Below are positions 19,341 to 49,473 of a stretch of DNA of 64,000 nucleotides, piece by piece (within the stretch, counting starts at the first letter, position 1; every line of letters begins with the position of its first letter). A program made the position numbers and the translations under genes. Source of the stretch: a virus. The notes beneath the pieces are model-generated. The model was not told where the DNA came from. It saw only the letters and a list, made by a program, of their open reading frames with translations, and made no database searches. Location of the stretch: the IMG/VR virus record IMGVR_UViG_3300023296_001674, one strand, 5' to 3'.

Positions 19341-19509
19341 TAAGTGTCCCTACATGCCGGAATTGGTATACGGGGGTGTGGCTAAGTCAATATGGATAGG
19401 AAAGCAAATACTAATAACTTTCTTTGTGCCCACGGCGTTAACCACCTTACTATGACGAGCACAACCGAACATAGTTATGCAGGATCATACCCTGCTGTGG
19501 AGACACTTA
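19341..19509 (+). ncRNA. tRNA-like RNA with ~100-nt insert replacing anticodon arm
   Basis: D-arm ccggaattggtatacgg, T-like arm gcagg-atcatac-cctgc, closing stem taagtgt/acactta. Confidence 0.55.
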
Positions 19510-19516
19510 ATAATAT

Positions 19517-19596
19517 GGGGGATTAGCTCAGTCTGGGAGAGCGCCTGCCTTGCACGTAGGGTCATTGCATCAGTTCAAATCTGATATTCTCCACCA
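19517..19596 (+). tRNA. tRNA-Ala(UGC)
   Basis: Cloverleaf, G3:U70, CT TGC AC loop, CCA. Confidence 0.9.
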
Positions 19597-19614
19597 ATTT
19601 ATAATAACAACGAT

Positions 19615-19689
19615 GTCCGTCTAGTCCAACTGGCAGGAGACACGAGACTTAAAATCTCGACAGTGTGGGTTCGAATCCCACGGCGGATA
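19615..19689 (+). tRNA. tRNA-Leu(UAA), short variable loop, no encoded CCA
   Basis: cgaga-CT TAA AA-tctcg; GTTCGAATC. Confidence 0.9.
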
Positions 19690-19694
19690 CGAAT

Positions 19695-19772
19695 GCCTGT
19701 GTAGTCCAACTGGAAGGAGACACTAGATTTAGATTCTAGACAGTATCGGTTCGAATCCGATTACAGGTACCA
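19695..19772 (+). tRNA. tRNA-Leu(UAG)
   Basis: ctaga-TT TAG AT-tctag; CCA. Confidence 0.9.
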
Positions 19773-19783
19773 ATTAACTATAT

Positions 19784-19862
19784 GCCCGTTTACGCCAATC
19801 AAGGTAGAGCGATGATATTTAAAATTTCATGGATGTCGGTTCGAATCCGATGACGGGTACCA
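19784..19862 (+). tRNA. tRNA-Leu(UAA)
   Basis: TT TAA AA loop; one stem mismatch; CCA. Confidence 0.8.
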
Positions 19863-19918
19863 ATTAGTGTCCGCAAGGGAATTAAATTACGGGTAGCGTA
19901 AGCTAATTTTACATCAAT

Positions 19919-19996
19919 GTCAGCGTAGTCCAACCGGAAGGAGACACTTGTTTCAAAAGCAAGACAGTGTGGGTTCGAATCCCACCGCTGACACCA
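19919..19996 (+). tRNA. tRNA-Leu(CAA)
   Basis: cttgt-TT CAA AA-gcaag; CCA. Confidence 0.9.
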
Positions 19997-20008
19997 ATAA
20001 TATTTCAT

Positions 20009-20096
20009 GTGGATATGGTGGAATGGTAGACACGCAAGGTTTTGTAATGTTGTGGGAGATATCCCGACGCAGGTTCGATTCCTGTTATCCACACCA
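20009..20096 (+). tRNA. Leu-type tRNA body with irregular anticodon loop (undetermined)
   Basis: Acceptor gtggata/tatccac, long variable arm, A73-CCA, 8-nt loop ttttgtaa. Confidence 0.6.
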
Positions 20097-20100
20097 ATAA

Positions 20101-20247
20101 GAATTGAAGTTCCATCAATAGACTGCCAAGCTGAAAATGCTACGGGTGAGGTGAGTTCTTTATGCGGTTTTCCAGTATCCGCGTCAAACTGGAAAGAAGT
20201 ACGGTGCAGAGCGTGAGAAATCACGCAAGGACGGGTCTCTTCTTTAA
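20101..20247 (+). ncRNA. pseudoknot-containing structured RNA
   Basis: atgcgg/ccgcgt crossed with tttccagt/actggaaa; gcgtga-gaaa-tcacgc. Confidence 0.45.
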
Positions 20248-20263
20248 TAAAAGGTCCGGTTTT

Positions 20264-20351
20264 GGAAGGTAAAGCAGCCAGGGCGCTGCGGGGGGTTGCT
20301 AACCCTTTCGTACTCTAGTAGTGTTCGGTTCGAGTCCGATGCCTTCCTCCA
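20264..20351 (+). tRNA. tRNA-Ser(GCU), extended D stem
   Basis: TT GCT AA loop, long variable arm, CCA. Confidence 0.8.
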
Positions 20352-20353
20352 AT

Positions 20354-20447
20354 GGAAGATTAACCTCGCAGGGTCGGGGGACCGTTTTGAAAGCGGATCG
20401 CACGTGTTAGTAGCATGTGTAGATTTCGAGTATCTAATCTTCCGCCA
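20354..20447 (+). tRNA. tRNA-Ser(UGA), extended D stem
   Basis: ggaagat/atcttcc, TT TGA AA, long variable arm, G73-CCA. Confidence 0.8.
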
Positions 20448-20457
20448 ATTTTAAGAA

Positions 20458-20617
20458 TTAACTGAAGTGCAAAAGCGGACACCAATATTAACGTTTGCGG
20501 TGAATGTGACAGCATAGACTCCGTGGAGGAGTTCCGAAGGGTAAGATAGTGCTAGTTAGATTAATTACCTAACTTACACATTCAAGTGTTGGTGGTAATG
20601 TCCAGCCGGTTATACCA
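20458..20617 (+). ncRNA. structured RNA ending in ACCA
   Basis: taactg/cggtta closing stem, ggacaccaatatt/agtgttggt..gtcc, 3' tatACCA. Confidence 0.4.
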
Positions 20618-20622
20618 AATAT

Positions 20623-20696
20623 TGCGGGTTGCTACAGGTGTGGCACCATGGCGTTGAACCATGGGATGGTGGGATCGTTACCTACACCCGCAGCCA
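20623..20696 (+). tRNA. tRNA-Gln(UUG), atypical (G33, altered T loop)
   Basis: tgcgggt/acccgca G CCA; catgg-CG TTG AA-ccatg. Confidence 0.65.
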
Positions 20697-20703
20697 ATTT
20701 TAA

Positions 20704-20777
20704 CGGAGTATAGTAGAGTGGCACTACCCCTGACTCGGACTCAGGTAACGGGGATTCGATTTCTCCTACTCCGACCA
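20704..20777 (+). tRNA. tRNA-Pro(CGG)
   Basis: cctga-CT CGG AC-tcagg; C1:G72 A73 CCA. Confidence 0.85.
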
Positions 20778-20784
20778 ATAATAT

Positions 20785-20859
20785 AGCGGGTTCGTCTAAT
20801 GGCTAAGACGGGTGTTTTTGGTACACCAAATCAGGGTTCGACTCCTTGACCTGCTGCCA
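20785..20859 (+). tRNA. tRNA-Gln(UUG)
   Basis: ggtgt-TT TTG GT-acacc; G73 CCA. Confidence 0.88.
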
Positions 20860-20906
20860 ACAATATAATGATAAATACTTTCAACCGTTAATAGGAGTTG
20901 AAAGCC

Positions 20907-21329
20907 ATGAAAATATGCAGTATGTGTGAAAAAAACAAAAAACTAACAGATTTTAATATCAATAAAACAAAATCCAGTGGATATCAATCAATGTGTAGTG
21001 ATTGTAATAAAGAATATCAAAAAAAACATTATTTAGAAAATAGAGATGCGTATATAAAACGAAAAATAGATAGAAGACTAGCAATACGTGAATGGTTTTC
21101 AGAATTTAAATCTGTATTGAAATGTGAAATTTGTGGTGAAGATCATCCATCGACATTTGATTTTCATCATATCGATCCTTCGATTAAAGAAATGACTGTA
21201 TCAAAAGCAGTGTATGAAGGATATAGTATATCAAAAATAAAAAAAGAAATCGAAAAATGTCAAGTTTTTTGCGCTAATTGCCATCGAAAACATCATTGGG
21301 AAGAGCGGAATATATTAAAAGACATATAG
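20907..21329 (+). CDS. HNH endonuclease
   Basis: CxxC motifs, FDFHHIDP..K, EIEKC..CANCHR.HH; late promoter at 20870. Confidence 0.85.
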   Translation: MKICSMCEKNKKLTDFNINKTKSSGYQSMCSDCNKEYQKKHYLENRDAYIKRKIDRRLAIREWFSEFKSVLKCEICGEDHPSTFDFHHIDPSIKEMTVSKAVYEGYSISKIKKEIEKCQVFCANCHRKHHWEERNILKDI

Positions 21330-21345
21330 TATATTATTTAATTAT

Positions 21346-21420
21346 AGTGGATTCGTATAGTGGTTATTACCCAACACTCTGAATGTTGCGACGAAAGTTC
21401 GATTCTTTCATCCGCTGCCA
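21346..21420 (+). tRNA. tRNA-Gln(CUG)
   Basis: caaca-CT CTG AA-tgttg; G73 CCA. Confidence 0.88.
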
Positions 21421-21431
21421 ATTGATCATAA

Positions 21432-21509
21432 CAGAGTGTGGGAAAGTCTAGTAAATCCGCCGGTTTTGGAAACCGGAGAACGTTGGAGCGAAGCCAACCA
21501 TTCTGACCA
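21432..21509 (+). tRNA. tRNA-Pro(UGG), altered T loop
   Basis: ccggt-TT TGG AA-accgg; T loop AGCGAAG; ACCA. Confidence 0.8.
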
Positions 21510-21556
21510 ATTAATAATATTGACACCATACATTGATTAATGTATATTACAGTTAA

Positions 21557-21652
21557 CGAGCGATGGCGAAAATAGTAGACGCGGCATCCATATGGGATGT
21601 CGGTGGATAAATCAACACCACCGTGCAGGCGCAAATCCTGCTCACTCGACCA
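21557..21652 (+). tRNA. tRNA-like gene, Pro-type acceptor, long variable arm, aberrant anticodon loop
   Basis: cgagcga/tcactcg A CCA; self-complementary loop ccatatgg. Confidence 0.6.
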
Positions 21653-21672
21653 ATTTTTAAGTGGAATACAAA

Positions 21673-22023
21673 ATGAAAGATATAATATTACATCAATATC
21701 CAACTAATATAAAATTGCCTGAATTTGGATTTTGGGATACATTAAAAGGTAAAAAACATCCAATAGATTATTTCGCACCAGACGATACTATGTGTCTTTA
21801 TATACAAAAACAGTTTGTAGTAGAACTTGAGATGGAAATATTGGATATAAAAGAACGTTTTGGTGATTGTATTGTTGATAAAATAGTTTCAACATCTGAA
21901 GACGAATTGATTGATTTTGTAACTACGTATTATTTACGCTTTGATGATGAAGGGGTATATGATGCATATGTAAGATATTATGGTGAATGTATTTTTGATC
22001 GATATAGCGATGAGAAAGAATAA
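21673..22023 (+). CDS. hypothetical protein
   Basis: ORF between tRNAs. Confidence 0.65.
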   Translation: MKDIILHQYPTNIKLPEFGFWDTLKGKKHPIDYFAPDDTMCLYIQKQFVVELEMEILDIKERFGDCIVDKIVSTSEDELIDFVTTYYLRFDDEGVYDAYVRYYGECIFDRYSDEKE

Positions 22024-22196
22024 TGACATTTAATAGAGAAGCTAAAAGACGTGAAGAGGTTTCTAAACCAAAAGATATTGTAAAACGTTTGCGATTTACT
22101 GATTGTAAAGTGCGCAACGATGCTGCATTAGAAATTGAACGGTTAAGAGATATATTATTACAGCATGATATTGTTGTGGATGGTATAATAAAATAA
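22023..22196 (+). CDS. small phage protein (DIVKRLR..AALEIERLR)
   Basis: Coupled ATG at 22023; 57 codons. Confidence 0.55.
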   Translation: MTFNREAKRREEVSKPKDIVKRLRFTDCKVRNDAALEIERLRDILLQHDIVVDGIIK

Positions 22197-22206
22197 ATAA
22201 AGTTAA

Positions 22207-22284
22207 CGGGGTGTAGCTCAGTCTGGTCAGAGCGCCGCGTTTGGGACGCGGAAGTCGTATGTTCGAATCCTATCACCCCGACCA
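22207..22284 (+). tRNA. tRNA-Pro(UGG)
   Basis: Canonical cloverleaf, TT TGG GA, CCA. Confidence 0.92.
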
Positions 22285-22289
22285 ATTAA

Positions 22290-22382
22290 CAAGCGATGGC
22301 GGAAACAGTAGACGCAGGTCCATTACGGGACTGGGTGGGTTAATTGCCCATCGTGGAGGTGCAAATCCTTCTTGCTTGACCA
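22290..22382 (+). tRNA. tRNA-like gene paralogous to 21557, aberrant anticodon loop
   Basis: caagcga/ttgcttg A CCA; ggtcc-attacg-ggact; long variable arm. Confidence 0.6.
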
Positions 22383-22500
22383 AATTAAATCATTAATAAT
22401 GATTGACACTAGTGTGCAGATGATGTATACTTGAAAAATAAGAAGACCTAAGTGTTTCTACAGTTGTTGTTGATATTTACAACAAAGAAGGAGAAATATT

Positions 22501-22815
22501 ATGGATCATTTACACGGTAAACGGTTTGGTTTTTATGGCGTTGACGGCAATTGTTTCAAGTTAGGCAGAGATGTTTACGAGGCAATTGAAGATGAGGACG
22601 ACGGCTACCGTTCTTATTTGAATAGCATTGAGAAGGTTGATTTCGACGGGATTTTTTTCAAGCAACCCTTGGGAACTATTGAGGTGAAAATGACTGACGA
22701 TTGGTATTATTTAGAAGACGTTAAGGATGGACACATCTGGTTGAGAGTAGGCACAGATGATACGGATGATTATTATCCATATTTCGTATTTGATTATCAA
22801 CCGAAAAAAATGTAA
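22501..22815 (+). CDS. hypothetical protein
   Basis: AAGGAG RBS, TTGACA..TATACT promoter. Confidence 0.75.
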   Translation: MDHLHGKRFGFYGVDGNCFKLGRDVYEAIEDEDDGYRSYLNSIEKVDFDGIFFKQPLGTIEVKMTDDWYYLEDVKDGHIWLRVGTDDTDDYYPYFVFDYQPKKM

Positions 22816-22819
22816 TTTA

Positions 22820-22848
22820 AAGTGTCCCGGATAATGGGGCACTTTTTT
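22820..22848 (+). terminator. intrinsic terminator
   Basis: aaagtgtccc/ggggcacttt plus T run. Confidence 0.6.
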
Positions 22849-22851
22849 AAT

Positions 22852-22934
22852 GGGGAAGGAAAGCCAGTGGCTCTGGCACCGAGTCTGTAAAACTCGTCTT
22901 CACGGGAGTGGATCGAAACCACACTTCCCCACCA
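22852..22934 (+). tRNA. tRNA-Tyr(GUA), atypical D/T arms
   Basis: cgagt-CT GTA AA-actcg; T loop ATCGAAA; ACCA. Confidence 0.8.
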
Positions 22935-22950
22935 ATTTTCATACAATAAT

Positions 22951-23033
22951 GGGAGAGGAAAGTCAGTGGCTCTGACATCGCGTCTGTAAAACGCGTCCTA
23001 ACGGGAGTGGATCGAAACCACACTCTCCCACCA
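22951..23033 (+). tRNA. tRNA-Tyr(GUA), second copy
   Basis: cgcgt-CT GTA AA-acgcg; compensatory changes relative to first copy. Confidence 0.8.
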
Positions 23034-23034
23034 A

Positions 23035-23083
23035 TTTATACGGATTAGCGCATAAAATCATTTTATACGGATTAGCGCATAAA
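23035..23083 (+). repeat. 22-nt direct repeat x2
   Basis: tttatacggattagcgcataaa at 23035 and 23062. Confidence 0.85.
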
Positions 23084-23110
23084 CCAACGTTATCTTTGGA
23101 GGATAATCAA

Positions 23111-23448
23111 ATGACGATGCAGGTAGCAAGAAGCGGCTAAAGAAAACGCCGCTACATATAACTGCGACCACACCTGATAACAAGTGTGTAGTTGCTGGAT
23201 TTTTTAAATTAGTAGATGGTGAAGGTATACCATTAACGATTGTATTGGGTTATTTAAATGATAAAAATTTATTACCTGATTGGATTGATTTTTTAGAAAG
23301 TTCAGTTCATCGAAAATGGAATTTAAAATCCACGATAGTAAAGATTGATCAGGCTTGTTTTGAAGTTTACGGTCCTGAACATCGTGATAATGTAATAATA
23401 AGAATTAAGCAATGGGTCATTAAGCAGTGGCCTACTTATGGGATATAA
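23111..23448 (+). pseudogene. frameshifted gene with AlaRS-helix-like motif
   Basis: GGAGG+ATG at 23111 stops after 9 codons; an alternative frame reads ...GFFKLVDGEGIPLTIV...PDWIDF to 23448. Confidence 0.45.
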
Positions 23449-23514
23449 TGTAAGGATTAGCATCAGAGTCTTGGATACTCTTCGACATGGGTTTGAGTCC
23501 CAGTTTCCCGACCA
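23439..23514 (+). tRNA. tRNA-Pro(UGG), degenerate
   Basis: agagt-CT TGG AT-actct; stem mismatches; ACCA. Confidence 0.6.
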
Positions 23515-23625
23515 ACATAGAGCTTCAGAGTTGTCGATCAGTGCGAACGTGGCATTGAATGTGGACAATAGCCCAATAGGGTTGGATTATCTTTAAGATG
23601 AATCGTATGCTGTGGACGAATTTAT

Positions 23626-23736
23626 ATGAAAGTGGACTTAATGGTAGGTCGCTGTACGGAAGAATCGGCTATGATATGGGAAACCTATTAGTCGTAAGCA
23701 TACGCAGAAGTGTTGGTTCGAGTCCAGCCTTTCATA
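23626..23736 (+). ncRNA. tRNA-like RNA with ~40-nt insert in anticodon arm
   Basis: atgaaag/ctttcat, D arm gactt/aggtc, T arm gttgg-TTCGAGT-ccagc. Confidence 0.65.
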
Positions 23737-23743
23737 CTAATAA

Positions 23744-23827
23744 CGGGCATGACCGACTACTGGGATGGTCGCTAGGCTTTCAACCTAGTCCTTTAGGTGA
23801 AGGGTTCGATTCCCTCATGCCCGACCA
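23744..23827 (+). tRNA. tRNA with UUC (Glu) anticodon, long D stem and variable arm, C1:G72/A73
   Basis: cgggcat/atgcccg A CCA; ctagg-CT TTC AA-cctag. Confidence 0.7.
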
Positions 23828-23833
23828 ATTTAT

Positions 23834-23930
23834 CTTGTAGAGTTGGGAAATTCGATGACTTCATAATGGTGTGGGGGTGCCCGGTCAACATTATGAAATA
23901 GAATTAGCGAGTTCGACTCTCGTCTGCAAG
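23834..23930 (+). ncRNA. tRNA-like RNA (acceptor and T arm, long internal hairpin)
   Basis: cttgtag/ctgcaag, gcgag-TTCGACT-ctcgt, ttcataatg/cattatgaa. Confidence 0.55.
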
Positions 23931-23990
23931 CCTATTTTATTGACAAACGGTAGTGTTTTGTATATTATGGTTCTTTGAGGAGAGAAGAAA

Positions 23991-24254
23991 ATGTATATAG
24001 ACAATTTTACAAAAAACAAAGATTTAATAAATGTGTATCAATACACAATGCATTTAAAAGATGGTATGAAAGTATATTCTATCCATCATGATAAACGGAC
24101 CATTGTGATTCAATTAGATACGCAATTGCCATCAACGCACACATTTTCTAAAAAAGTTTTTACTGATGTATTAAGTACGCATCATTATGAAGGCGATTTA
24201 GAAGTTGCTGCTACAATGGTTTTTGAAAAATTAATAGATGGAGATATGATATAA
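23991..24254 (+). CDS. hypothetical protein (paralog of next gene)
   Basis: MYxDxFTK, HHD, YxGxLExAATxVFE shared. Confidence 0.75.
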   Translation: MYIDNFTKNKDLINVYQYTMHLKDGMKVYSIHHDKRTIVIQLDTQLPSTHTFSKKVFTDVLSTHHYEGDLEVAATMVFEKLIDGDMI

Positions 24255-24508
24255 TGTATATGGATTATTTTACTAAAGTTTCAGAAACTGAAGAAATATA
24301 TGGATTTAAAGCGCATCAAATAGCGGGAATTCGTTCATATATAATACATCATGATAATCACAGGATTGTGGTTCAATCAGAAGATGAAGTTTTGGAAACA
24401 CATACATATGACGGAAATTTAGAAGATGCTGCGACATTTGTATTTGAAGAATTATTAGATGAGACACCAGCAGGGACTGTTTTGCTTCCGATAAAAAGTA
24501 ATGAATAA
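24254..24508 (+). CDS. hypothetical protein (tandem paralog)
   Basis: As above. Confidence 0.75.
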   Translation: MYMDYFTKVSETEEIYGFKAHQIAGIRSYIIHHDNHRIVVQSEDEVLETHTYDGNLEDAATFVFEELLDETPAGTVLLPIKSNE

Positions 24509-24777
24509 TGTTTTTAAATGATGAAGTAATAGATTGGTTGTATATGGCATCATGTGTAGCATTGCCATTATTATATATGCCATCAATGTATTTCTCATCA
24601 ATGTTTTTGATAGGAATGGGCATTGCAACACTTATAAAAATGTTTTTTCCATCGCATCGATTAGTGATATTGAGATGGATAAGATGTTTAATAGATTATG
24701 GCGGAGTGATGGTAAGTTTATCATTGCTATATAAAAGGATAAAAATATGGACTACGATTTATCAGCGCAGCAAGTAG
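24508..24777 (+). CDS. small membrane protein
   Basis: Hydrophobic coupled ORF. Confidence 0.5.
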   Translation: MFLNDEVIDWLYMASCVALPLLYMPSMYFSSMFLIGMGIATLIKMFFPSHRLVILRWIRCLIDYGGVMVSLSLLYKRIKIWTTIYQRSK

Positions 24778-25907
24778 AAGCAAAGGATGAGATACTTAAA
24801 TGGTGGAATGACGAATATTCTGACCAAGTGTTTTACCTTGCAGGATATGCTGGTTCTGGAAAGACGACATTAATTAAGTATCTATTGCCATATATGGATT
24901 TAGATATTTCAAATGAATATGATGTCACATTTGGTGCATATACGAATAAAGCATCTATTGTTATGCGTAGAACTGGTATATTAACAGCCAATACGATACA
25001 TAGTATGATTTATCATCCAGAAGAACAGGATGATGGAACAGTTTTATTCAAAAAGAATCGTGATAGCATCGCAAAAGACACAAGTTTGATTGTATTAGAT
25101 GAGTGTTCTATGATTGACGATGACATGGCGAATGACTTGGACAGTTACGGCACAAAAATTTTAGTTTTAGGTGATCCGGGTCAACTTCCACCAATTAAAG
25201 GTGAAGGGCATTATACAAAACGCAAGCCTGATTACTTTTTGACTGAAATTCATAGACAGGCGGAAGGAAATCCGATTATTCAGTTATCCATGTTAGCACG
25301 CCAAGGTCAATTTTTGAAATTGGGTGAATATGGTGATGGTGTTCGGGTTGTTGATTCTGACGATATGGAATTTGAAGATTTTTTAAAGGCAGATCAAGTT
25401 TTGTCTGGTAAAAATGTCACAAGACAGTTTTTGAATAAAAACATGAAAGAAGAATATGGTTTCAATGATGTTTTACCAATGGATAAGGGCATCAAGTTGA
25501 TTTGTTTAAAAAACCAAAAGAAAATTGGTTTATACAATGGAATGATGTTTGAATCTATGTTTGATAGAAGCCATGTTCATCTTGGTCGTGGTAATAAGTT
25601 TTTCACACAATCAGTAATGAATGACGAAGGATTTGTTTACGACACGCTTGACATATCGGCTGGACCATTTAACGATTATAAATCTCAGCGCGATGCTGCA
25701 ACGATTCAATTGGATCGTAAGAACAATAGAAACCATAGCGAATTTGATTATGGTTATGCTATTACAGTTCACAAATCGCAGGGTAGTCAATGGGAAAATA
25801 TTATTATTTATGATGATGATTTTGGAATGTGGGACAAACTTCTTCGTGCAAGATGGCTTTATACAGGCATCACACGCGCCCAAACGGGTATGATAATAAT
25901 ACGATAA
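24747..25907 (+). CDS. SF1B helicase (Dda/RecD2-like)
   Basis: GYAGSGKTT, DECSM, GDPGQLPP, YAITVHKSQGS, YTGITRA. Confidence 0.92.
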   Translation: MDYDLSAQQVEAKDEILKWWNDEYSDQVFYLAGYAGSGKTTLIKYLLPYMDLDISNEYDVTFGAYTNKASIVMRRTGILTANTIHSMIYHPEEQDDGTVLFKKNRDSIAKDTSLIVLDECSMIDDDMANDLDSYGTKILVLGDPGQLPPIKGEGHYTKRKPDYFLTEIHRQAEGNPIIQLSMLARQGQFLKLGEYGDGVRVVDSDDMEFEDFLKADQVLSGKNVTRQFLNKNMKEEYGFNDVLPMDKGIKLICLKNQKKIGLYNGMMFESMFDRSHVHLGRGNKFFTQSVMNDEGFVYDTLDISAGPFNDYKSQRDAATIQLDRKNNRNHSEFDYGYAITVHKSQGSQWENIIIYDDDFGMWDKLLRARWLYTGITRAQTGMIIIR

Positions 25908-25999
25908 GAATAGTGAAGGCTGCACTTCTCGAGAAGATGCAGGAAGTAGCAGTATGATATTATTACTGTGAAGTAGGTGAAATCCCTACCCAAATTCTT
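25906..25999 (+). ncRNA. small multi-hairpin RNA
   Basis: aagaat/attctt closing three hairpins. Confidence 0.4.
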
Positions 26000-26002
26000 T
26001 AT

Positions 26003-26078: not shown

Positions 26079-26154
26079 AATTAGAACTTAAGAGTTGTTA
26101 TTGACAATTTTTCATAATGTGTTAATATAATATTTTATCATAAAGGAGTATGTT

Positions 26155-26397: not shown

Positions 26398-26422
26398 ATT
26401 TAGAATAGAAAGGATTAGTAAC

Positions 26423-33549: not shown

Positions 33550-33837
33550 TTAACCTAGCGATGGATCATCAGACCAACGGATCATAGCAAATGTTACTTC
33601 TAATATAGCATCTTCTGGCGTTAGATCAAACCACTCACCCGACACTTTTTTGCGTGCATTAGCGTGGTGTATCTTTTTTTCAAGCAATCGAACATGTTCT
33701 TTTCGAACTTCTTGTTTGTGATGAATTTTTAATTTTTGTGGATTACCAGTTTGAATGGAAGACAGTCGTTTTTCGACATCTTGGCTAAATCCAATTTTTT
33801 GTGACCCTGATTCGGGTCCGATTACATATATAAACAT
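33550..33837 (-). CDS. T5orf172/GIY-YIG domain protein
   Basis: FIYVI..KIGFS..KRL..IQTGNP, GEWF. Confidence 0.85.
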   Translation of the reverse strand: MFIYVIGPESGSQKIGFSQDVEKRLSSIQTGNPQKLKIHHKQEVRKEHVRLLEKKIHHANARKKVSGEWFDLTPEDAILEVTFAMIRWSDDPSLG

Positions 33838-33920: not shown

Positions 33921-34001
33921 TGTACTGTGGAGGAAGCGGAATACTCATTGGTTTGCAAAACCGACGCCGAAAGGATTGCAGGTTCGAGTCCTGCCGAGAA
34001 G
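33921..34001 (+). pseudogene. pseudo-tRNA, GCA (Cys) anticodon, unpaired acceptor
   Basis: ttggt-TT GCA AA-accga and gcagg-TTCGAGT-cctgc intact; acceptor not paired. Confidence 0.55.
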
Positions 34002-34031
34002 GAATAATACCCTAGAACATAATACAACCAC

Positions 34032-37287: not shown

Positions 37288-37374
37288 GGAAGATTAACCA
37301 GTCAGGGTACTGGGACCGTTTCGAAAGCGGATCGCACCTCACGGTGTAGATTTCGAGTATCTAATCTTCCGCCA
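37288..37374 (+). tRNA. tRNA-Ser(CGA)
   Basis: Paralog of 20354; TT CGA AA; GCCA. Confidence 0.8.
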
Positions 37375-42272: not shown

Positions 42273-43154
42273 ATGACAAAAATAGAGTTAATATGCCCAA
42301 ACTGCAAATCCGTTTTTAATAGATATAAATCTACGATTAGAAAAAATCAAAAATATGTTTATTGTAGTAAAAAATGCAAAGGTGAATATGAAAAATCTAA
42401 TAAATTGTTGCATGGGGAAAATAACCCCAACTATGGTAAAACATGGTCAACACAACAACGCAAGTTAGCATCCAATAAAATGGTGGGTAACAATAAAGGT
42501 AAATCATATGAGGATTTATACGGTAAATGTCGTTCCGATGACTTGAAAAATCAACGTAGTGTATCAATGAAAGAACATCGATCAAAGAACCCGATATCTG
42601 GAATTGATAATCCTTTTTTTGGTAAAACACATGATGAAAAAACAAAACGTATAATAGGTGAAAAATCGAAAGATAAATTCACTGATGATTATATGACAAA
42701 ATATAGAACAGTGATGGAGAATGCTGGTCATTGGATTCCGTTAAAGGATAAATCTGATTATGAAATATATTTTAAACAGGCGGAATGGTGTGAAAAAATG
42801 TTTGATCGCGCATCCGATGTTGAAATATTATTATTGCGTGAATATGGTGTTTTCAACAATAAAACAAACACGAAGGGTGTAGTAAGAGATCATATATATT
42901 CAAGAAAGAGTGGGTTTGAGAATGGGGTGTTTCCTATATTATTAAGACATCCAGCTAATTGTGGCATTATTACTCATTCTGATAATGTTAAAAAGAAAAC
43001 ATCGAGGTATATCGATAAAGATGGTCATACTATTGATGAGTTGTTTTTACGCATAGAAACCTATAAAAATAAATGGATTGAACATGATGATTGTTTAATG
43101 TTAATAGATGATTATATTAATGGAAAACGATGGAAACGAGAGGAGGAATTATAA
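42273..43154 (+). CDS. homing endonuclease (NUMOD3 and HNH-like)
   Basis: CPNC..YCS..C, NPFFGKTH, RDHIYSR..HPANC; late promoter 42236. Confidence 0.8.
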   Translation: MTKIELICPNCKSVFNRYKSTIRKNQKYVYCSKKCKGEYEKSNKLLHGENNPNYGKTWSTQQRKLASNKMVGNNKGKSYEDLYGKCRSDDLKNQRSVSMKEHRSKNPISGIDNPFFGKTHDEKTKRIIGEKSKDKFTDDYMTKYRTVMENAGHWIPLKDKSDYEIYFKQAEWCEKMFDRASDVEILLLREYGVFNNKTNTKGVVRDHIYSRKSGFENGVFPILLRHPANCGIITHSDNVKKKTSRYIDKDGHTIDELFLRIETYKNKWIEHDDCLMLIDDYINGKRWKREEEL

Positions 43155-43155
43155 A

Positions 43156-43715
43156 ATGAAACAGAATGTATACTTTACATCTGATCTTCATTTAGGTTAG
43201 CCTTCGGGCTAATTTATGAAGGACATACTAATATTATTAAATATTGCAATAGACCATATGTGGATGCCGACGAAATGGATGCCGCACTTATAAACAACTG
43301 GAACTCCGTGGTACAACCGGACGACATTGTTTATAACTTGGGCGATTTTACTTTTTCAAGAAATGCTGAAAAATACCTAGCACGATTGAATGGAGTGAAG
43401 CACTTAATCAAAGGCAATCACGACAAACAACCTAGCCCAAGTCAGGGATGGGCAAGCGTCAATGATTACCGTGAAGTGCGTGTAGAAGGACAATTCATTG
43501 TTCTTATGCATTATTCTATGAAAGTTTGGAATAAATCACACGGCGGCGCTTGGCAATTGTTTGGTCATTCGCATAATACCCTCCCTGATGATCCAAATGC
43601 ATTATCTATCGATGTAGGCGTAGATGCTCATGGTTACTTTCCGATTTCTTTTAGAGATGTGAAAAGAATTATGGCAAAGAAAAACTACAAACCGGTTGAT
43701 CATCATGGAAGATAA
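43156..43715 (+). CDS. calcineurin-like metallophosphoesterase interrupted by a 26-nt coding gap (43198-43223)
   Basis: TSDLHLG | HTNII..RP, LGDF, GNHD, H, GHSH, DVGVD; AGGAGG RBS. Confidence 0.85.
43193..43223 (+). other. candidate translational bypass element (T4 gene 60-like)
   Basis: GGT-TAG-CCTTCGGGCTA hairpin ... GGA landing codon. Confidence 0.7.
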
Positions 43716-44048
43716 ATGTTAAATTTTTTAAAACGTATATTCGAAATAAAGAAAGAACCAATGGGATTGATTCATGAAGTTATTGTTGATAATGGCACAC
43801 TTATTATAAGAAAATCTATTATTCCAATAAGTAAAGTATTGGGGTTGAGTATACGCCATTCACGTCCAGGAGCGATTGATAATGTTTTGCGCGTTGATTT
43901 GACGATTGAGAAACCAGAATCGCAACGCACACCATATGGATTAGGAAGTTATCGGTTATATATTGGAAGTACGAATGCATCAGATAAAAAAGTAAACGAC
44001 ATGGAAAATGTATTTCGTGGTATAGGTATTAGGGTATCACACATTTAA
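43716..44048 (+). CDS. hypothetical protein
   Basis: ORF. Confidence 0.6.
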   Translation: MLNFLKRIFEIKKEPMGLIHEVIVDNGTLIIRKSIIPISKVLGLSIRHSRPGAIDNVLRVDLTIEKPESQRTPYGLGSYRLYIGSTNASDKKVNDMENVFRGIGIRVSHI

Positions 44049-44062
44049 AAGGAGTATATAAT

Positions 44063-44311
44063 ATGAAATTGTTTGATTATATAAAGAATTTTTTTAACTA
44101 TAAATATTTTGTCATTGAAAAACATGGTGGTTATATGGTGTATTTAAAAAAAGGATTTTTTATCATTAAACATCAACATTATTGGACCGAGTTATATGCA
44201 TGTGAAAATGGTAACAGGTGGATAAAAGAATATACATTAATAGATTTTTTAAAAAGGGAGAAATATAAAATGAAAACGTATAGGCACGCTCAGGAGGGCG
44301 GAACCTCCTAA
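44063..44311 (+). CDS. hypothetical protein
   Basis: AAGGAG RBS. Confidence 0.55.
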   Translation: MKLFDYIKNFFNYKYFVIEKHGGYMVYLKKGFFIIKHQHYWTELYACENGNRWIKEYTLIDFLKREKYKMKTYRHAQEGGTS

Positions 44312-44347
44312 CTGTAAATATTGAAACAGATAAGGAGAACTTTTGTT

Positions 44348-44533
44348 ATGAGTGTTCGTGATAAAAGGGACGGGCATCTTAGTAGACGCTTTAAGGCTAT
44401 CAAAAATATGCATGGCATTATGCTTGATAGACAGATTCGTGAAGAACGAAGAATGCTTAAGAAGGCAATGAGTAAAAGAAGTCGAAAACATGACCGTCGT
44501 GAACTAAAAGAATCTATGGATGACATAGAATAA
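44348..44533 (+). CDS. small basic protein
   Basis: AAGGAG RBS; R/K rich. Confidence 0.55.
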   Translation: MSVRDKRDGHLSRRFKAIKNMHGIMLDRQIREERRMLKKAMSKRSRKHDRRELKESMDDIE

Positions 44534-44536
44534 AAG

Positions 44537-44569
44537 AAAGGGATGAAGAGCAATCTTCATCCCTTTTTT
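44537..44569 (+). terminator. intrinsic terminator
   Basis: aaagggatgaaga-gcaa-tcttcatcccttt plus T run. Confidence 0.85.
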
Positions 44570-44628
44570 ATTGACTTGTTGTAGACTTTTGTTCATACTG
44601 ATAGAATGGATTAACAGAAAGGTGATAT

Positions 44629-45561
44629 ATGAAACAAAAAACATTTGATGATATTAGAACTCTTACTAAAAGCGATTTTAAATCGTTAACACAAAAAGCA
44701 TTAAAATCTTGTGAAGAAGTAGGCGAGTTAGCAAAAGTTGTTTTGCCGTTTGAAAATGCGTATGCTACAACGCATCGATTTGTCGACAAAGATAAAATAC
44801 TTGAAGAAGTTTGTGATGTTGTACTCACGACTCTTTCTGTTGCATATGAACTTGAATTCAATGATGATGATATAGATGCTATGTTAAATCGAAAAATAAA
44901 AAAATGGGCAGAAATGCAACATCGTGAAACAAAGGCTGACTATCCAGTCCCATATGAAATACACATTACTGTTACAACTGATGACATTCCAAAATTTAAA
45001 AATATATGCGATGATATTGGCGTAAAGCCGATTGTGATAGATTTACAAAACCGTAGTGGCGTTTCGATAATGGATGATGTTATGACTTCATCGACGCATG
45101 TGGGCAATAATAATAGCGTATATATTGAGATGAAACGCATATCTGATGCAATGGTTGAATATGGTTTGACCGTACTTCGCGAGAAGATAGAAACTGTTCC
45201 ATGGCATCCTGCTGCCCCATCGAATGACCATGCGGATAAAACTATGCCAAAAGATTGTTATTTTGAAGCACATTTTGGTGTATTATGCACAAATGAAACA
45301 TTACCGAAGTTGGGCAAATTAGCCAAAAATACGGGTTCTCATTTATCAAGAAATGCATTTAAGAAACATGATGATGGTCGTGTTACGATGATGATCACTC
45401 ATCGCCGAAAGGATTGCACTTCTGAAACCTTCGCAAACGCTGTTGAAGCCATAAAACAAACGCTGGCTGAAGAATTTGAAGTTAAAAAAGTTATTGTAGA
45501 GTTTTCAGTATTTGATACAAAGGTGAATCATGATGCAACTTGGATAACGAATAATACATAG
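44629..45561 (+). CDS. MazG-like nucleotide pyrophosphohydrolase fused to unknown domain
   Basis: K..EEVGEL...EEVCDV; C-terminal EIHIT/YFEAH repeats. Confidence 0.75.
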   Translation: MKQKTFDDIRTLTKSDFKSLTQKALKSCEEVGELAKVVLPFENAYATTHRFVDKDKILEEVCDVVLTTLSVAYELEFNDDDIDAMLNRKIKKWAEMQHRETKADYPVPYEIHITVTTDDIPKFKNICDDIGVKPIVIDLQNRSGVSIMDDVMTSSTHVGNNNSVYIEMKRISDAMVEYGLTVLREKIETVPWHPAAPSNDHADKTMPKDCYFEAHFGVLCTNETLPKLGKLAKNTGSHLSRNAFKKHDDGRVTMMITHRRKDCTSETFANAVEAIKQTLAEEFEVKKVIVEFSVFDTKVNHDATWITNNT

Positions 45562-45571
45562 GAGAGTAAAA

Positions 45572-46219
45572 ATGACTGACGTAAAAACAGAAGAATTGCT
45601 GTTCTCAGAAACATTGTTTAACTATAAAAAACGTCGTTCTGCGATGCGTTATTATTTACAGGGTCGTGGATATTTTATCGCATTAAAAGCGATGAACTTT
45701 GCTGATGCTCATCATAAAGGAACTAGAAAAGATTTAATCACACCGGCTTTTGACCATCAAATACGCATTGCGCATTTTGTTCGAACGCTACCAGATTTAT
45801 TATATCAAGAGGAAACGATTGCTACAGTGTTGTTACATGATACGCCTGAAGATTATGACGTTGGTCATGATGAAATAGAACTCAAATTTGGTTCCATTGT
45901 TTCAGTTGCAACAGAACTTGTCACCAAAGTGCATCGCGGTGATAAAAAACACATGCCGACATACTTTGATCAAATAGCAACCGATCCGATTGCAAGTATT
46001 GTTAAGGGTGCTGATCGTGTTCATAACCTACAGTCGATGGTTGGTGTATTTGATGAGAAAAAACAACTTCAATATATGGATGAAGTGCGTCGATTTTTCT
46101 TACCGATGTTAAAGAAGGCAAGACGAAATTTTCCAGAGCAAGAAGCAGCATATGAAAATATAAAACATATGTTGGTGTCACAATTGGAATTGTTGGAAGT
46201 TATTAATGGGAGCAAATAA
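45572..46219 (+). CDS. HD-domain (p)ppGpp hydrolase (small alarmone hydrolase-like)
   Basis: H.G.RK, LLHDTPED, VTK, VK.ADRVHNL. Confidence 0.85.
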   Translation: MTDVKTEELLFSETLFNYKKRRSAMRYYLQGRGYFIALKAMNFADAHHKGTRKDLITPAFDHQIRIAHFVRTLPDLLYQEETIATVLLHDTPEDYDVGHDEIELKFGSIVSVATELVTKVHRGDKKHMPTYFDQIATDPIASIVKGADRVHNLQSMVGVFDEKKQLQYMDEVRRFFLPMLKKARRNFPEQEAAYENIKHMLVSQLELLEVINGSK

Positions 46220-46722
46220 TGATAAAAAAAACACATAGTCAAATAGAAAAAATGAATGAAGACATAGATCGAATCTACCGACTTGGAAAAATGTTGGATA
46301 AAAAAACGCGAGAATTAAAAGACCAAAAGAAAAGAAAAATTGAAGAAACTAAAAAATTGGTTGATTGGGCATTGGTTACTGATAATGAAAATGTAAAAGA
46401 CCTGCGTGAACAGTGGTTGATGGCTGCTACACTTATATATGATAAAAACGAAGCAAAACAAGAACTAGAATCAAAAGAATTCAACATATCCGACACGCTT
46501 GGTCCTACACAGGTCTTAAGTCAAGACGATATTGATGGTTTGTTGGGTTTTGACGATGAAGTGGTCGATGATGATGAGGAAGATGGTGATTTAGCCGCCG
46601 AATGGGAAATCATGATGGGTGGTGATATAGACGAGAATGATGATTATCTTAATCCTAATATATCAGACTCACTTGAGATGACCGTGGAATCTATTCGTCG
46701 AACGCTACAACGAAATCACTAA
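46219..46722 (+). CDS. hypothetical protein with FliM-N-like motif
   Basis: VLSQDDIDGLLGFD, LAAEW. Confidence 0.65.
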   Translation: MIKKTHSQIEKMNEDIDRIYRLGKMLDKKTRELKDQKKRKIEETKKLVDWALVTDNENVKDLREQWLMAATLIYDKNEAKQELESKEFNISDTLGPTQVLSQDDIDGLLGFDDEVVDDDEEDGDLAAEWEIMMGGDIDENDDYLNPNISDSLEMTVESIRRTLQRNH

Positions 46723-46792
46723 CGATGAGATAATGATTGACTGATATTAATAAACAAAGTATAATAAGGATTAAATTAAAGAGGAGTATGTT

Positions 46793-47572
46793 ATGATAGG
46801 TGCAGTTATTGGTGATATTATTGGTTCTGTTTATGAAATGCATAATCATTTTTCAAAAGATTTTCCATTATTCAATGGTGGAAATTCAATGACCGACGAT
46901 ACAGTTTGCACAGTTGCTATTGCGGATTGTTTGATGAACGGAAACGATGATTTCGATGTATATCTTCGTAAATACTGTTTAGAGAACATCCATGCTGGTT
47001 ATGGTGGAATGTTTATCAAATGGCTTAAGGATGATTCCATTGGCGCATATGATAGTTGGGGTAATGGTGGCGCAATGCGTGTTAGTTCAGTGGCTTATGT
47101 TGCCACTACGTTAGAAGAAGCAATGGATATGGCAAAGCGTACATGTATGGTGACACATAGCCATCCAGAGGGCATAAAAGGCGCACAAGCATTGATATCT
47201 GCAATGTGGTTCGTTAAGGAAGGTCATAACGCTGAAAATATCGAATTAATGATAGAAAATGAATTTGGATATGATTTAAATCAAACAATGGAAGATTTGT
47301 GGAAGACATATGGCGAGTTTGATGTATCTGCTGCTGGCAGTGTGCCGCAAGCTATTATTTGCGCACTACGTTCGACTAGTTATGAAGATGCCATAAGAAA
47401 CGCGGTTTCTATTGGTGGTGATTCTGATACCATTGCGTGTATGGCTGGAGCAATTGCTGAGTTGATGTATGATGGCGTTCCAGATGAGATAAAAGATAAA
47501 GCATTTAGGGCATTGCCGCCTAAATACATTGCAGTTATTGATCAATTTACAAAAAAGTATAATAATGTATAA
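46793..47572 (+). CDS. ADP-ribosylglycohydrolase (DraG/ARH family)
   Basis: GDIIGS, TDDT, GNGGAMR, TH.HPEG, GGDSDT. Confidence 0.93.
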   Translation: MIGAVIGDIIGSVYEMHNHFSKDFPLFNGGNSMTDDTVCTVAIADCLMNGNDDFDVYLRKYCLENIHAGYGGMFIKWLKDDSIGAYDSWGNGGAMRVSSVAYVATTLEEAMDMAKRTCMVTHSHPEGIKGAQALISAMWFVKEGHNAENIELMIENEFGYDLNQTMEDLWKTYGEFDVSAAGSVPQAIICALRSTSYEDAIRNAVSIGGDSDTIACMAGAIAELMYDGVPDEIKDKAFRALPPKYIAVIDQFTKKYNNV

Positions 47573-47738
47573 CGTTATAAAAAATACACCAGTATCTATA
47601 TTTGTGATATTGCTTTTATGGTATATGGCATTGAATTCTGTTATTGTGTTAATGCCATTCGCTATAATTAGTGTTATAATGGCGACGTTTATTATGAAAA
47701 CTGAAATACAAAAAGAAATAGCAATTATAAGGGCATGA
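47565..47738 (+). CDS. small membrane protein
   Basis: Hydrophobic ORF. Confidence 0.5.
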   Translation: MYNVIKNTPVSIFVILLLWYMALNSVIVLMPFAIISVIMATFIMKTEIQKEIAIIRA

Positions 47739-47744
47739 TTATAA

Positions 47745-48485
47745 ATGAGTGACTTAGAAAAGATGCGTGCTGCTGGAAAATTGGCAGCACAAACGTTAGA
47801 TTATCTTAAACATCGTGTTGTTGACGGTATAACCACAAATGAAATTAATAAAGTAGTTCATGACTTCACAATTGACCACGGTGCGATTCCTGCACCTTTG
47901 AATTATAAAGGATTTCCAAAATCTGTATGCACATCAGTTAATCATGTAGTATGTCATGGCATTCCAAGTGATAAGGTGTTGCACGATGGCGATATAGTAA
48001 ACATTGATGTTACAACAATATTAGATGGGTGGCATGGTGATACCAGTAGAACATTTTTGGTGGGAAAACCATCAATTAAAGCAAAGAAATTAGTTGAAAC
48101 AACACGCGAAGCCATGATGCGTGGTATTGAAGTGATAAAACCCGGTGCTACCACTGGCGACATTGGTCATGCAATAGAAAGTTTCGTAAATGGAAAATAT
48201 GGAATAGTTAAAGATTATTGTGGTCATGGTATTGGTGAGGAATTTCACACCAATCCACAAATATTTCATCACGGACAATCAGGAACAGGAACTACTTTGA
48301 TAGAAGGTATGTTTATAACTGTAGAGCCAATGCTTAATATAGGTAAAGACGCAGTAAAAGAGTTATCGGATGGTTGGACGGTTGTTACGCGTGATCGCAG
48401 TTTAAGTGCGCAATTTGAGCATACTATAGCAGTTGTTGCTGATGGTTATGAAATATTAACACTGTCCGACAATGACCGCATTTAA
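47745..48485 (+). CDS. map: methionine aminopeptidase type I
   Basis: CTSVN.VVCHGIP, DVT..GWHGDTS, GHGIG, EPM, SAQFEHT. Confidence 0.96.
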   Translation: MSDLEKMRAAGKLAAQTLDYLKHRVVDGITTNEINKVVHDFTIDHGAIPAPLNYKGFPKSVCTSVNHVVCHGIPSDKVLHDGDIVNIDVTTILDGWHGDTSRTFLVGKPSIKAKKLVETTREAMMRGIEVIKPGATTGDIGHAIESFVNGKYGIVKDYCGHGIGEEFHTNPQIFHHGQSGTGTTLIEGMFITVEPMLNIGKDAVKELSDGWTVVTRDRSLSAQFEHTIAVVADGYEILTLSDNDRI

Positions 48486-49215
48486 AATATTACTTGCAAA
48501 TGGCTGTAGTGTAGCACATGGAACTGAAATGGTTGATTGTCCAATAATAGACGAATATATTGACGGTAATCCCAGTAAATTTGCATGGCCTCAGTTGTTA
48601 GGTGACGAATTATTATTAGAAACCAAAAATATATCCAAACCTGGTGGTAGTAATGAGCGAATATCACGAACTACTATTGAACATGTGTTGACATTGTTAA
48701 AACAATATAAAAATGATGAAATATTGGTTGGTATCATGTTTTCACATATGAATAGATTTGAATATCCCGACGACGGATCGAATTTTTGGAATACTTATGG
48801 TCATTGGTATATTGATAATAAAATCGACGAAAAATTTGTAGAACGTATAATATTAAACGATTATTATATGATTTATAAAACATTGCAGTCAATTCATGCG
48901 TTGCAGATGTTTTTGCATAACCACAATATATGTTATTTTATGAGTTTTATTAAATCGAGTGTTACGCATGGCGAAAACAATCACATGAGTTTTATGTCTG
49001 AATTAGATTTTGAATATTTATTCGATGATATAGATTGGGATAAATTTTTTTATGTAGTGGGTAAAAATAATAAAAATATTTCTATTATGAATTTAGGTAG
49101 TGATAATAAAATGAAAAGAGGCCCATATAATCATTTTCTTGAAGACACGCACAAATTATACACCGATCATCTTATTCCTTGGGTTAAAAATAGATTTATT
49201 GACAAAATCACTTGA
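48472..49215 (+). CDS. SGNH-like protein (DUF6071-like)
   Basis: ANGCS, GGSNERISR, H...TH. Confidence 0.65.
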   Translation: MTAFKILLANGCSVAHGTEMVDCPIIDEYIDGNPSKFAWPQLLGDELLLETKNISKPGGSNERISRTTIEHVLTLLKQYKNDEILVGIMFSHMNRFEYPDDGSNFWNTYGHWYIDNKIDEKFVERIILNDYYMIYKTLQSIHALQMFLHNHNICYFMSFIKSSVTHGENNHMSFMSELDFEYLFDDIDWDKFFYVVGKNNKNISIMNLGSDNKMKRGPYNHFLEDTHKLYTDHLIPWVKNRFIDKIT

Positions 49216-49248
49216 CAAATAACTGTAATATGGTATAAATATCTATAA

Positions 49249-49362
49249 GATTGATTTGAATGGGTTCCGGCGTAACGGATAACTGCCCTAAAGGATACTT
49301 TGTTGTGCACGATAAAGAGTGTTTAAGTTCCGACTATAGCAGAGGTAGACTTCAAGTTAATT
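49249..49362 (+). ncRNA. structured RNA candidate
   Basis: gattgatttgaa/ttcaagttaatt closing stem; downstream of a TTGACA promoter. Confidence 0.35.
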
Positions 49363-49369
49363 TTACTAT

Positions 49370-49473
49370 GTGACCGTGGTGGAAAGTTGGTATACACGGC
49401 CCTTCAAGATTAATTACGTCTTGAAAGAGTCCCTGAGTATTCAGGTTTGAAGGTTCGATGCCTTTCGGTTACA
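49370..49473 (+). ncRNA. tRNA-like RNA with elongated anticodon stem
   Basis: gtgaccg/cggttac, D arm, ttcaaga/tcttgaa extension, variable arm cctga/tcagg, T arm. Confidence 0.65.

Follow-up and report, generated by a model that had tools for sequence, protein, structure and literature searches.

Small stable RNAs encoded in the transfer RNA (tRNA) clusters of phages T4 and T5 have been known for decades and, to our knowledge, no function has been found for them. GenBank annotates rnaC and rnaD of T4 as small stable RNAs, and the T5 record AY543070 lists RNA1 and RNA2, located in the T5 tRNA region, as misc_RNA, 'tRNA-like stable RNA with unknown functions'. These annotations provide a precedent for expression. 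Here we describe four loci with tRNA-like frames in a 64,000-nt stretch of virus DNA (hereafter the window), which forms the final 64 kb of the 194-kb IMG/VR record IMGVR_UViG_3300023296_001674. They are locus 1 (19348..19503), locus 2 (23626..23736), locus 3 (23834..23931) and locus 4 (49370..49473), all on the + strand. All four were confirmed as real tRNA-shaped, non-decoding elements. Elements of this kind are already known from T4 species 1/2 and T5 RNA1/RNA2, of which T5 RNA1/RNA2 and T4 species 1 come nearest to the present loci, and the family represented by locus 1 appears to be new. A first-pass annotation had treated the four loci as one family; judged by their sequences, they are not.

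The layout of T5 RNA1 is that of locus 1, with an acceptor, a D arm, a large insert, a class II variable hairpin and a T arm, and the two D arms are identical at 19 of 20 bases. T5 RNA2 resembles locus 2, as it joins a class I-like frame to a large insert. However, the T5 inserts are unrelated in sequence to loci 1-4, and in the scans made RNA1 was confined to T5-like phages, unlike the locus-1 type. The T4 species 1/2 RNAs (rnaC and rnaD) are small and stable and are encoded at the end of the T4 tRNA cluster, and rnaC has a canonical T arm near its 3' end together with long extra hairpins. They differ from the present elements in that their frames are not leucine-type, that they gave no match to R1, a covariance model built from the locus-1-type family, and that no homology to the four loci was detected.

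The tRNA-like domain of transfer-messenger RNA (tmRNA) and the mascRNA mimics (RF00023, RF01684) share with locus 3, and with a tRNA-shaped gene beside locus 1 (19262..19332), a minihelix, a reduced or absent D arm and a helix that replaces the anticodon arm. Loci 1-4 are nevertheless unlike tmRNA, as they have no tag frame, pseudoknots, conserved G3:U70 or CCA, and the tmRNA models of Rfam (RF00023 / RF04321) gave no match at any of them. In YrlA-type Y RNAs (RF02553), which are also phage-borne, a tRNA-like module is fused to another RNA domain. The 5' and 3' ends of YrlA lie in the Ro-binding stem, not in an acceptor stem, and RF02553 gave no match at the loci even at E<=10. Finally, in the engineered tRNA scaffold an RNA is grafted in place of the anticodon arm and is processed and protected like a tRNA. 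That scaffold is man-made, whereas the four loci would be natural counterparts.

ARAGORN calls no gene at any of the four loci in either mode, with the intron option or without it, and the Rfam tRNA model likewise recognises none of them, even at E<=10. None fits the canonical tRNA (5-bp anticodon stem, 7-nt loop, U33 and purine 37). A scanner was used that looks for T stems of 5 bp capped by a TTCRANY loop and directly abutted by a 7-nt strand, which must pair perfectly with a 7-mer 55-260 nt upstream, as an acceptor stem does. On the + strand it returned the known tRNAs plus loci 2 and 3, both with perfect stems, and on the - strand of the full 194-kb record it gave zero matches. Markov-1 simulated genomes yielded about 1 chance match per 388 kb (2x194 kb). 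Hence, two additional matches within the 5-kb tRNA array, namely loci 2 and 3, are far more than chance would give. Once the final T-loop base is left free, the scanner also accepts locus 4 (T loop TTCGATG). Locus 1 fails it, owing to a C.A mismatch at 2:71 and the T loop AUCAUAC, and is accepted as real because of its homology to other elements.

A 7-bp acceptor abutting a 5-bp T stem with a T loop was found in loci 2, 3 and 4, whose fold energies with the tRNA stems enforced lie at most 3 kcal/mol from the unconstrained optimum. Both arms are perfect in loci 2-4; locus 1 has the C.A mismatch and the atypical T loop. The D arms, described as mostly kept, are present in loci 1, 2 and 4, and locus 3 has only the linker AGUUGGGA in this place. 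The replaced arm measures 75 nt in locus 1, 56 nt in locus 2, 57 nt in locus 3 and 30 nt in locus 4, compared with the 17 nt of an ordinary anticodon arm. The ~100-nt insert formerly assigned to locus 1 really consists of two parts, a replaced arm of ~75 nt and a class II variable hairpin. Measured against shuffled sequences, the inserts of loci 3 and 4 show moderate extra stability (z -2.3 and z -1.9, respectively). Of the 25 tRNAs and CCA-bearing tRNA-like genes of the phage, 23 encode CCA after the discriminator. None of the four loci does so, and the triplets there are CAC (locus 1), CUA (locus 2), CUA (locus 3) and CAU (locus 4).

The RNA family of locus 1

Locus 1 is a leucine-frame class II tRNA-like RNA. 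Its acceptor stem (19348-19354 / 19496-19502), which carries the C.A at 2:71, is followed by the D arm (19357-19373), a conserved insert domain of ~75 nt in place of the anticodon arm (19374-19448), the class II variable hairpin (19449-19478), the T arm (19479-19495) and a discriminator A (19503) without CCA. Every feature of the leucine frame is present in locus 1, namely a D arm of the sequence UGCCGGAAnUGGUAkACGGG or close to it, a variable hairpin, a T arm and a replaced arm; loci 2 and 3 fail the same test.

Pattern scans and BLAST together recovered 11 homologues of locus 1 from phages and metagenomes, the sources being IMG/VR, JGI/TARA metagenomes, Synechococcus phage S-CRM01 and Pseudomonas phage GP100. 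When IMG/VR was searched with the 20-nt leucine D-arm motif, the matches included T5-like RNA1 copies, elements with unrelated inserts (L092, L100 and L102) and two elements (L098 and L109) whose inserts align with that of locus 1. The same motif also matched one genuine 85-nt tRNA-Leu(CAG), and thus the D arm is truly leucine-type. A second pattern, which combined the D arm with the start of the insert, gave further members in IMG/VR and in the JGI/TARA metagenomes. The members lie inside phage tRNA arrays, on the same strand as the tRNAs and a few nt from them.

Covariation was evaluated on alignment A3, which was made with MAFFT and comprises ten distinct sequences in 187 columns. RNAalifold predicted 42 pairs on A3, and compensatory change was seen at 25 of these. 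When the D stem was given its tRNA-Leu form, 96.4% of the cells were paired and double changes occurred at 25 of the 39 pairs. None of 500 shuffles reached any of these measures, and slid partners gave 7-11 compensatory pairs. A model-fitted alignment of 12 sequences was 98.5% paired, with compensatory changes at 26 of 39 pairs. The covarying pairs include 7/7 in the acceptor and 4/5 in the T stem, as well as pairs in the variable hairpin and in the 7-bp insert hairpin. Near-invariant across the family are the D arm, the basal stem of the insert and the hairpin loop UAAUNCUAAUAA. The insert has a signature consisting of the stem GGGUG.G/C.CACCU, a CUAAG..UAUGG segment and the covarying hairpin with its UAAUNCUAAUAA loop, and among the four loci only locus 1 carries it. 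The discriminator of the family is A, U or G; discriminator and acceptor sequence drift freely, and there is no conserved anticodon.

With model R1, family members reached 131-166 bits (locus 1, a seed member, 154 bits), T5 RNA1 49.6 bits and genuine class II tRNA-Leu genes 31-55 bits. Locus 4 scored 30.6 bits (E 7e-7) and locus 2 scored 20.8 bits, which is generic tRNA likeness; locus 3 gave no match. Members outside the seed, found by BLAST in two cultured phages, scored 136.6 bits (S-CRM01) and 130.9 bits (GP100), and they add a compensatory change in the D stem. The S-CRM01 member (HQ615693, 135449-135603) is situated in an unannotated gap of the tRNA array, the GP100 member lies at 4076-4230 of LT986460, and neither member is annotated in its GenBank record. 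No match to the locus-1-type RNA was found in Rfam, and a literature search revealed no description of the RNA families treated here. Hence the family appears to be undescribed, being absent from Rfam, from the annotation of S-CRM01 and GP100 and from the searchable literature. On this comparative evidence, locus 1 genuinely belongs to a conserved, widespread family of structured phage RNAs.

Two other identities were considered for locus 1 or its insert. A tmRNA identity was rejected: as the first-pass annotation had noted, there is no tag open reading frame, for locus 1 read in three frames gave no plausible tag, and no SmpB was found in the 194 kb of the phage. A reading of CUAAG..UAUGG as a GAAA-tetraloop receptor was also rejected, because the family does not consistently retain the pairs that must flank such a receptor; RNAalifold pairs the GCC of this segment with a distant GGY. 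As a separate observation, a U run directly follows the 3' strand of the acceptor in several members (L110, L115, L116 and L098; e.g. U GUUUUUU), and such an element may also terminate the array transcript.

Locus 4 and the orphan loci 2 and 3

Locus 4 was recognised by the scanner, by R1 and through a homologue on contig L121, and combines a class II (Leu/Tyr-type) frame with an expanded arm. Its acceptor (49370-49376 / 49466-49472) contains G3:U70, and its D arm (49379-49397), with a 3-bp stem, is related to the leucine type. The 30-nt arm (49400-49429) forms an 8-bp stem with the 7-nt loop UAAUUAC, and it is followed by a variable hairpin (49430-49448), a T arm (49449-49465, loop UUCGAUG) and the discriminator A (49473), after which CAU is encoded.

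A gene for a P-loop kinase (49519-50067, Zeta_toxin/AAA_33-like), for which no solved relative was found by sequence, starts 45 nt downstream of locus 4. A search with this kinase led to the 3.9-kb JGI contig L121, where MetAP and a 54%-identical kinase flank a gap of 197 nt. The gap contains a 103-nt element that agrees with locus 4 in length and plan and is syntenic with it, both lying in the context MetAP ... P-loop kinase. The D arm and an ACAUAU trailer are conserved between the two, and two acceptor pairs and one T-stem pair are changed on both sides. The variable hairpin differs in sequence and is still a hairpin. In the expanded arm, the length of 29-30 nt and the basal UUCA/UGAA pairing are kept. 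Homologues with covariation thus exist for locus 1 and in part for locus 4, by virtue of the compensatory acceptor and T-stem pairs in L121, and none of the four loci corresponds to a family described in Rfam.

Three further kinase homologues have neither an upstream gap nor a tRNA-like element. Therefore, the RNA of locus 4 follows the lineage rather than the kinase family, and the idea that RNA and kinase form a module is weakened. An alanine identity was rejected, as G3:U70 is replaced by G3:C70 in L121. RNAalifold run on the two sequences gave a non-tRNA interior fold, which was deemed untrustworthy. The D-arm pattern of locus 4 had no match in IMG/VR. Locus 4 is a second, lineage-restricted type built on the same kind of frame as locus 1.

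Locus 2 has a class I-like frame. Its acceptor (23626-23632 / 23729-23735) and D arm (23635-23650) are followed by a 56-nt middle (23652-23707) in place of the 17-nt anticodon arm, then by the T arm (23712-23728, loop UUCGAGU) and a discriminator A, after which comes CUA. Locus 3 is an acceptor/T-arm minihelix with a long hairpin and without a D arm. The acceptor (23834-23840 / 23924-23930) is separated by an 8-nt linker (23841-23848, AGUUGGGA), where the D arm would be expected, from an irregular 57-nt hairpin (23849-23905), and the T arm (23907-23923, loop UUCGACU) leads to a discriminator C and CUA. A distant BLAST search of loci 2-4 against GenBank phages matched only the T arm of a neighbouring tRNA. 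One pattern match of locus 3, in a metagenome-assembled genome of Desulfovibrio, was discarded as a chance 21-mer with no further similarity. We class loci 2 and 3 as orphans that share the general design of the others.

Explanations for the tRNA-framed elements

We consider it probable, with room for real doubt, that the four loci are genes for tRNA-framed, non-decoding stable RNAs that carry a cargo domain. In each locus the acceptor is stacked on the T arm, and loci 1, 2 and 4 also keep a D arm, including its elbow contacts G18 G19. The top half kept in this way is what RNase P, RNase Z/3' trimming enzymes and CCA-adding enzymes recognise. Loci 1-3 are co-oriented with the neighbouring tRNAs and locus 4 with its flanking genes, and no terminator was found between them. 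Taken together with the kept top half, this arrangement suggests that the host tRNA-processing machinery probably excises the loci. The products would be compact, nuclease-resistant RNAs that show a foreign domain at the position of the anticodon arm, and the CCA-adding enzyme of the phage could finish the four CCA-less transcripts. The presumed working part of locus 1 is the insert that displays the invariant UAAUNCUAAUAA loop, and this insert would bind a protein or an RNA. For the present loci we infer expression, processing and stability, as well as the role of the insert as a functional module.

The same leucine-type D arm occurs with unrelated inserts in T5 RNA1, L092, L100, L102 and the locus-1 type. 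The earlier proposal of a tRNA scaffold for functional RNAs fits this exchange of inserts on one D arm, together with a locus-1 insert that is conserved and covarying. The architecture is that of a natural tRNA scaffold and agrees with the stable RNAs observed experimentally in T5 and T4, and one insert or more is subject to selection of its own. This suggests that the grafting of RNA modules onto a tRNA chassis is a general phage strategy, and tRNA-like stable RNAs are not peculiar to T4 and T5. One type is conserved with strong covariation in a T4-like cyanophage, a Pseudomonas podophage and an uncultured megaphage, which makes it a defined family with a testable structure and with S-CRM01 and GP100 as cultured carriers, in which, as with T5 RNA1, function can be studied. 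Since standard tRNA finders miss these genes, the 'intergenic gaps' in phage tRNA arrays merit a second look.

A more specific proposal, which we put forward only tentatively, is that the locus-1-type RNA represents an undescribed and widely distributed class of phage ribonucleoprotein or riboregulator RNA, in which the Leu-tRNA frame is a chassis for delivery and stability, the UAAUNCUAAUAA-loop insert binds a specific, conserved bacterial target and loci 2-4 carry further cargoes. If so, phages of cyanobacteria, Pseudomonas and marine bacteria and of the megaphage host would share one RNA-based takeover tool, and the target of the insert might be a translation or RNA-processing factor.

Several results weigh against the view of stable RNAs with cargo domains. 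The insert of locus 2 (z -0.7) is no more stable than its shuffles. The earlier claim of preserved pairing is borne out between species at locus 1 and in the locus 4 frame, and within the single sequence alone at locus 3; it fails for the locus 2 insert. No homologue of locus 2 or 3 was found in GenBank phages or in single pattern scans of IMG/VR (locus 2) and of GTDB genomes (locus 3), so that selection on these two loci is unproven. The family of locus 4 has two members only, and their expanded arms are paired differently, the upper stem not being kept between locus 4 and L121. The copy at locus 1 itself departs from its family both in the T loop, AUCAUAC instead of UUCGANN, and in the C.A at 2:71, and on account of these departures it may be weakened or decaying. 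Moreover, the word scaffold names an architecture and not a demonstrated mechanism.

Some of these points would also be expected if the loci were decayed tRNA pseudogenes with insertions in the anticodon arm, left by the birth and death of genes in the array. We regard this as unlikely overall and as applicable mainly to loci 2 and 3, for which the missing homologues and the ordinary stability of the locus 2 insert speak in its favour. The loss of CCA in all four loci is likewise in line with decay, and the array also contains aberrant tRNAs and fragments (20623-20695, ~33921-34002 and two genes labelled '???' by ARAGORN). However, decay should strike the acceptor and T stems equally, and in loci 2 and 3 these stems are perfect and the T loops canonical, which argues against plain decay. 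For loci 1 and 4, conservation and compensatory changes rule the pseudogene reading out.

Alternatively, the RNAs could use their tRNA shape to lure away or inhibit tRNA-directed toxins or host defences, a role to which we assign a low probability. Phages counter tRNA-cleaving defences with tRNAs of their own, and the present phage invests heavily in tRNAs, with an arginyl-tRNA synthetase (ArgRS), a CCA-adding enzyme and >25 tRNA genes. The intact elbow and acceptor/T minihelix might also be recognised by proteins that read shape. The lost arm, however, is the part read by the ribosome and by anticodon nucleases. Since the anticodon loop is missing, the anticodon-nuclease decoy offered by the first-pass annotation is unlikely and without support; a decoy for proteins that bind the elbow or the acceptor end is conceivable but likewise unsupported. 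In addition, the insert of locus 1 is conserved across phages of cyanobacterial, Pseudomonas and marine hosts, which points to a general target and not to one host-specific defence, and the elements have no defence or anti-defence gene as a constant neighbour.

Slightly less probable still is that the elements serve as processing punctuation or as a cis-acting leader, in which the tRNA shape guides cuts by RNase P/Z so that adjoining mRNAs are separated or stabilised, and the RNA is a by-product. This would be most plausible for locus 4, because the element stands directly upstream of the kinase start (45 nt for locus 4, ~20 nt for L121) and is preceded in L121 by a TTGACA-17-TATAAA promoter. 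On the other hand, such a signal needs neither a conserved expanded arm nor the 75-nt insert of locus 1, the other kinase homologues lack an upstream gap or tRNA-like element, and loci 1-3 are flanked by tRNAs and not by mRNAs.

That the loci are intron-bearing tRNA genes whose inserts are spliced out to give working tRNAs is very improbable: although the inserts occupy the tRNA-intron position and a real group I intron exists elsewhere in the window, the inserts (13-58 nt beyond the anticodon arm) are too short for group I introns, as had been noted before, no Rfam intron model matches at the loci, ARAGORN in intron mode finds nothing there, no removal of a segment restores a 5-bp stem with a U33-NNN-R37 loop, the 194 kb yielded neither RtcB nor an RNA ligase, and the locus 1 family has no conserved anticodon. 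The group I intron just mentioned (63519-63739) scores 99.2 bits in Rfam with the full model covered and is the only Intron_gpI match.

Genome setting and neighbouring RNA genes

A 21-kb stretch of the phage is identical to part of a 570,549-nt ENA contig, so the phage is a megaphage. ARAGORN called 23 tRNA genes in the window, all on the + strand. The tRNA nucleotidyltransferase, i.e. the CCA-adding enzyme, is encoded at 7764..9026 on the + strand (phrog_2244, E 3.6e-51), and the neighbourhood of its gene recurs in a relative (PolyA_pol). ArgRS is encoded at 14500-16221 (Pfam match). The closest cellular ArgRS sequences come from Rhodospirillales, which hints at a host that is perhaps alphaproteobacterial. 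Megablast against GenBank phages gave no close relative of the megaphage, and a helicase search of IMG/VR gave no relative above 42% identity. The best relative is syntenic, with an ArgRS of 66% identity, and has a gene-free stretch at the expected position of the array. Relatives L003, L088 and L089 have no tRNA array near the helicase, and relative L087 spans only the leader upstream of locus 1.

This leader (19030-19260) is a non-coding region between an open reading frame of 87 amino acids and the first tRNA-like gene. It is 85% identical to L087 over 316 nt and is conserved above the level of the open reading frame. Two hairpins show compensatory changes, CAGG..CCUG vs UAGG..CCUA in the first and GGGAAAAC..GUUUUCC vs GGGAAAGC..GCUUUCC in the second. 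The leader has no Rfam match, and patterns based on it drew no match in either IMG/VR or JGI. We regard it as a probable structured RNA in its own right.

The first tRNA-like gene (19262..19332, + strand), beside locus 1, is an alanine-type, non-decoding tRNA-shaped gene that ARAGORN reports as 'tRNA-Ala'. It has G3:U70, A73 and an encoded CCA, and a 6-bp stem with a 5-nt loop takes the place of the anticodon arm. Its Rfam scores are 28.4 bits for tmRNA, which is below the cut-off, and 25.6 bits for the mascRNA-like model, and it resembles the tRNA-like domain of tmRNA minus the mRNA part. The related phage contig L088 encodes SmpB.

Further genes of the array are unusual as well. Between 19615 and 19996 there are four tRNAs with leucine anticodons (UAA, UAG, UAA and CAA), which measure 74-76 nt before CCA and have a 5-nt variable loop instead of the long variable arm seen in bacterial tRNA-Leu. 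Within the window, leucine-type class II frames occur only in the non-decoding loci 1 and 4. Two class II genes with CCA and irregular anticodon loops are those labelled '???' by ARAGORN: the first (20009-20096) has GUA in the loop and may be Tyr-like, and the second (22290-22382) has a 5-6-nt loop and the T loop UGCAAAU. ARAGORN and Rfam both missed a tRNA-Ser(UGA) at 20354-20446, which has a 22-nt variable arm and CCA and is a paralogue of the Ser(CGA) gene at 37288. They likewise missed a Gln-like gene of 70 nt at 20623-20695, with U1:A72, G73, G33, the T loop AUCGUUA and CCA. In a tRNA of 84 nt at 23744-23827 (anticodon UUC), the acceptor stem comprises 8 bp, the T stem 4 bp and the variable region 12 nt; the best Rfam score of this gene is 36.9 bits for tRNA-Sec (cut-off 47). 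At ~33921-34002 lies the 3' part of a Cys-like tRNA (loop UUGCAAA, perfect T arm) that has no matching 5' acceptor strand. It adjoins a T5orf172-type homing-endonuclease gene on the minus strand (33550-33837), and the fragment may be what remains of a tRNA gene after disruption by a mobile element.

Non-decoding tRNA-framed elements are general in phage tRNA arrays. The arrays of other phages contain unannotated elements of 114-149 nt, which have perfect acceptor and T arms and unrelated middles. These are located at 3498-3611 in L129 (S-CRM01) and at minus-strand positions 6340-6488 in L098 (~3683-3831 in locus coordinates), 2195-2314 in L110 (~5864-5983) and 6576-6696 in L111 (~7258-7378).

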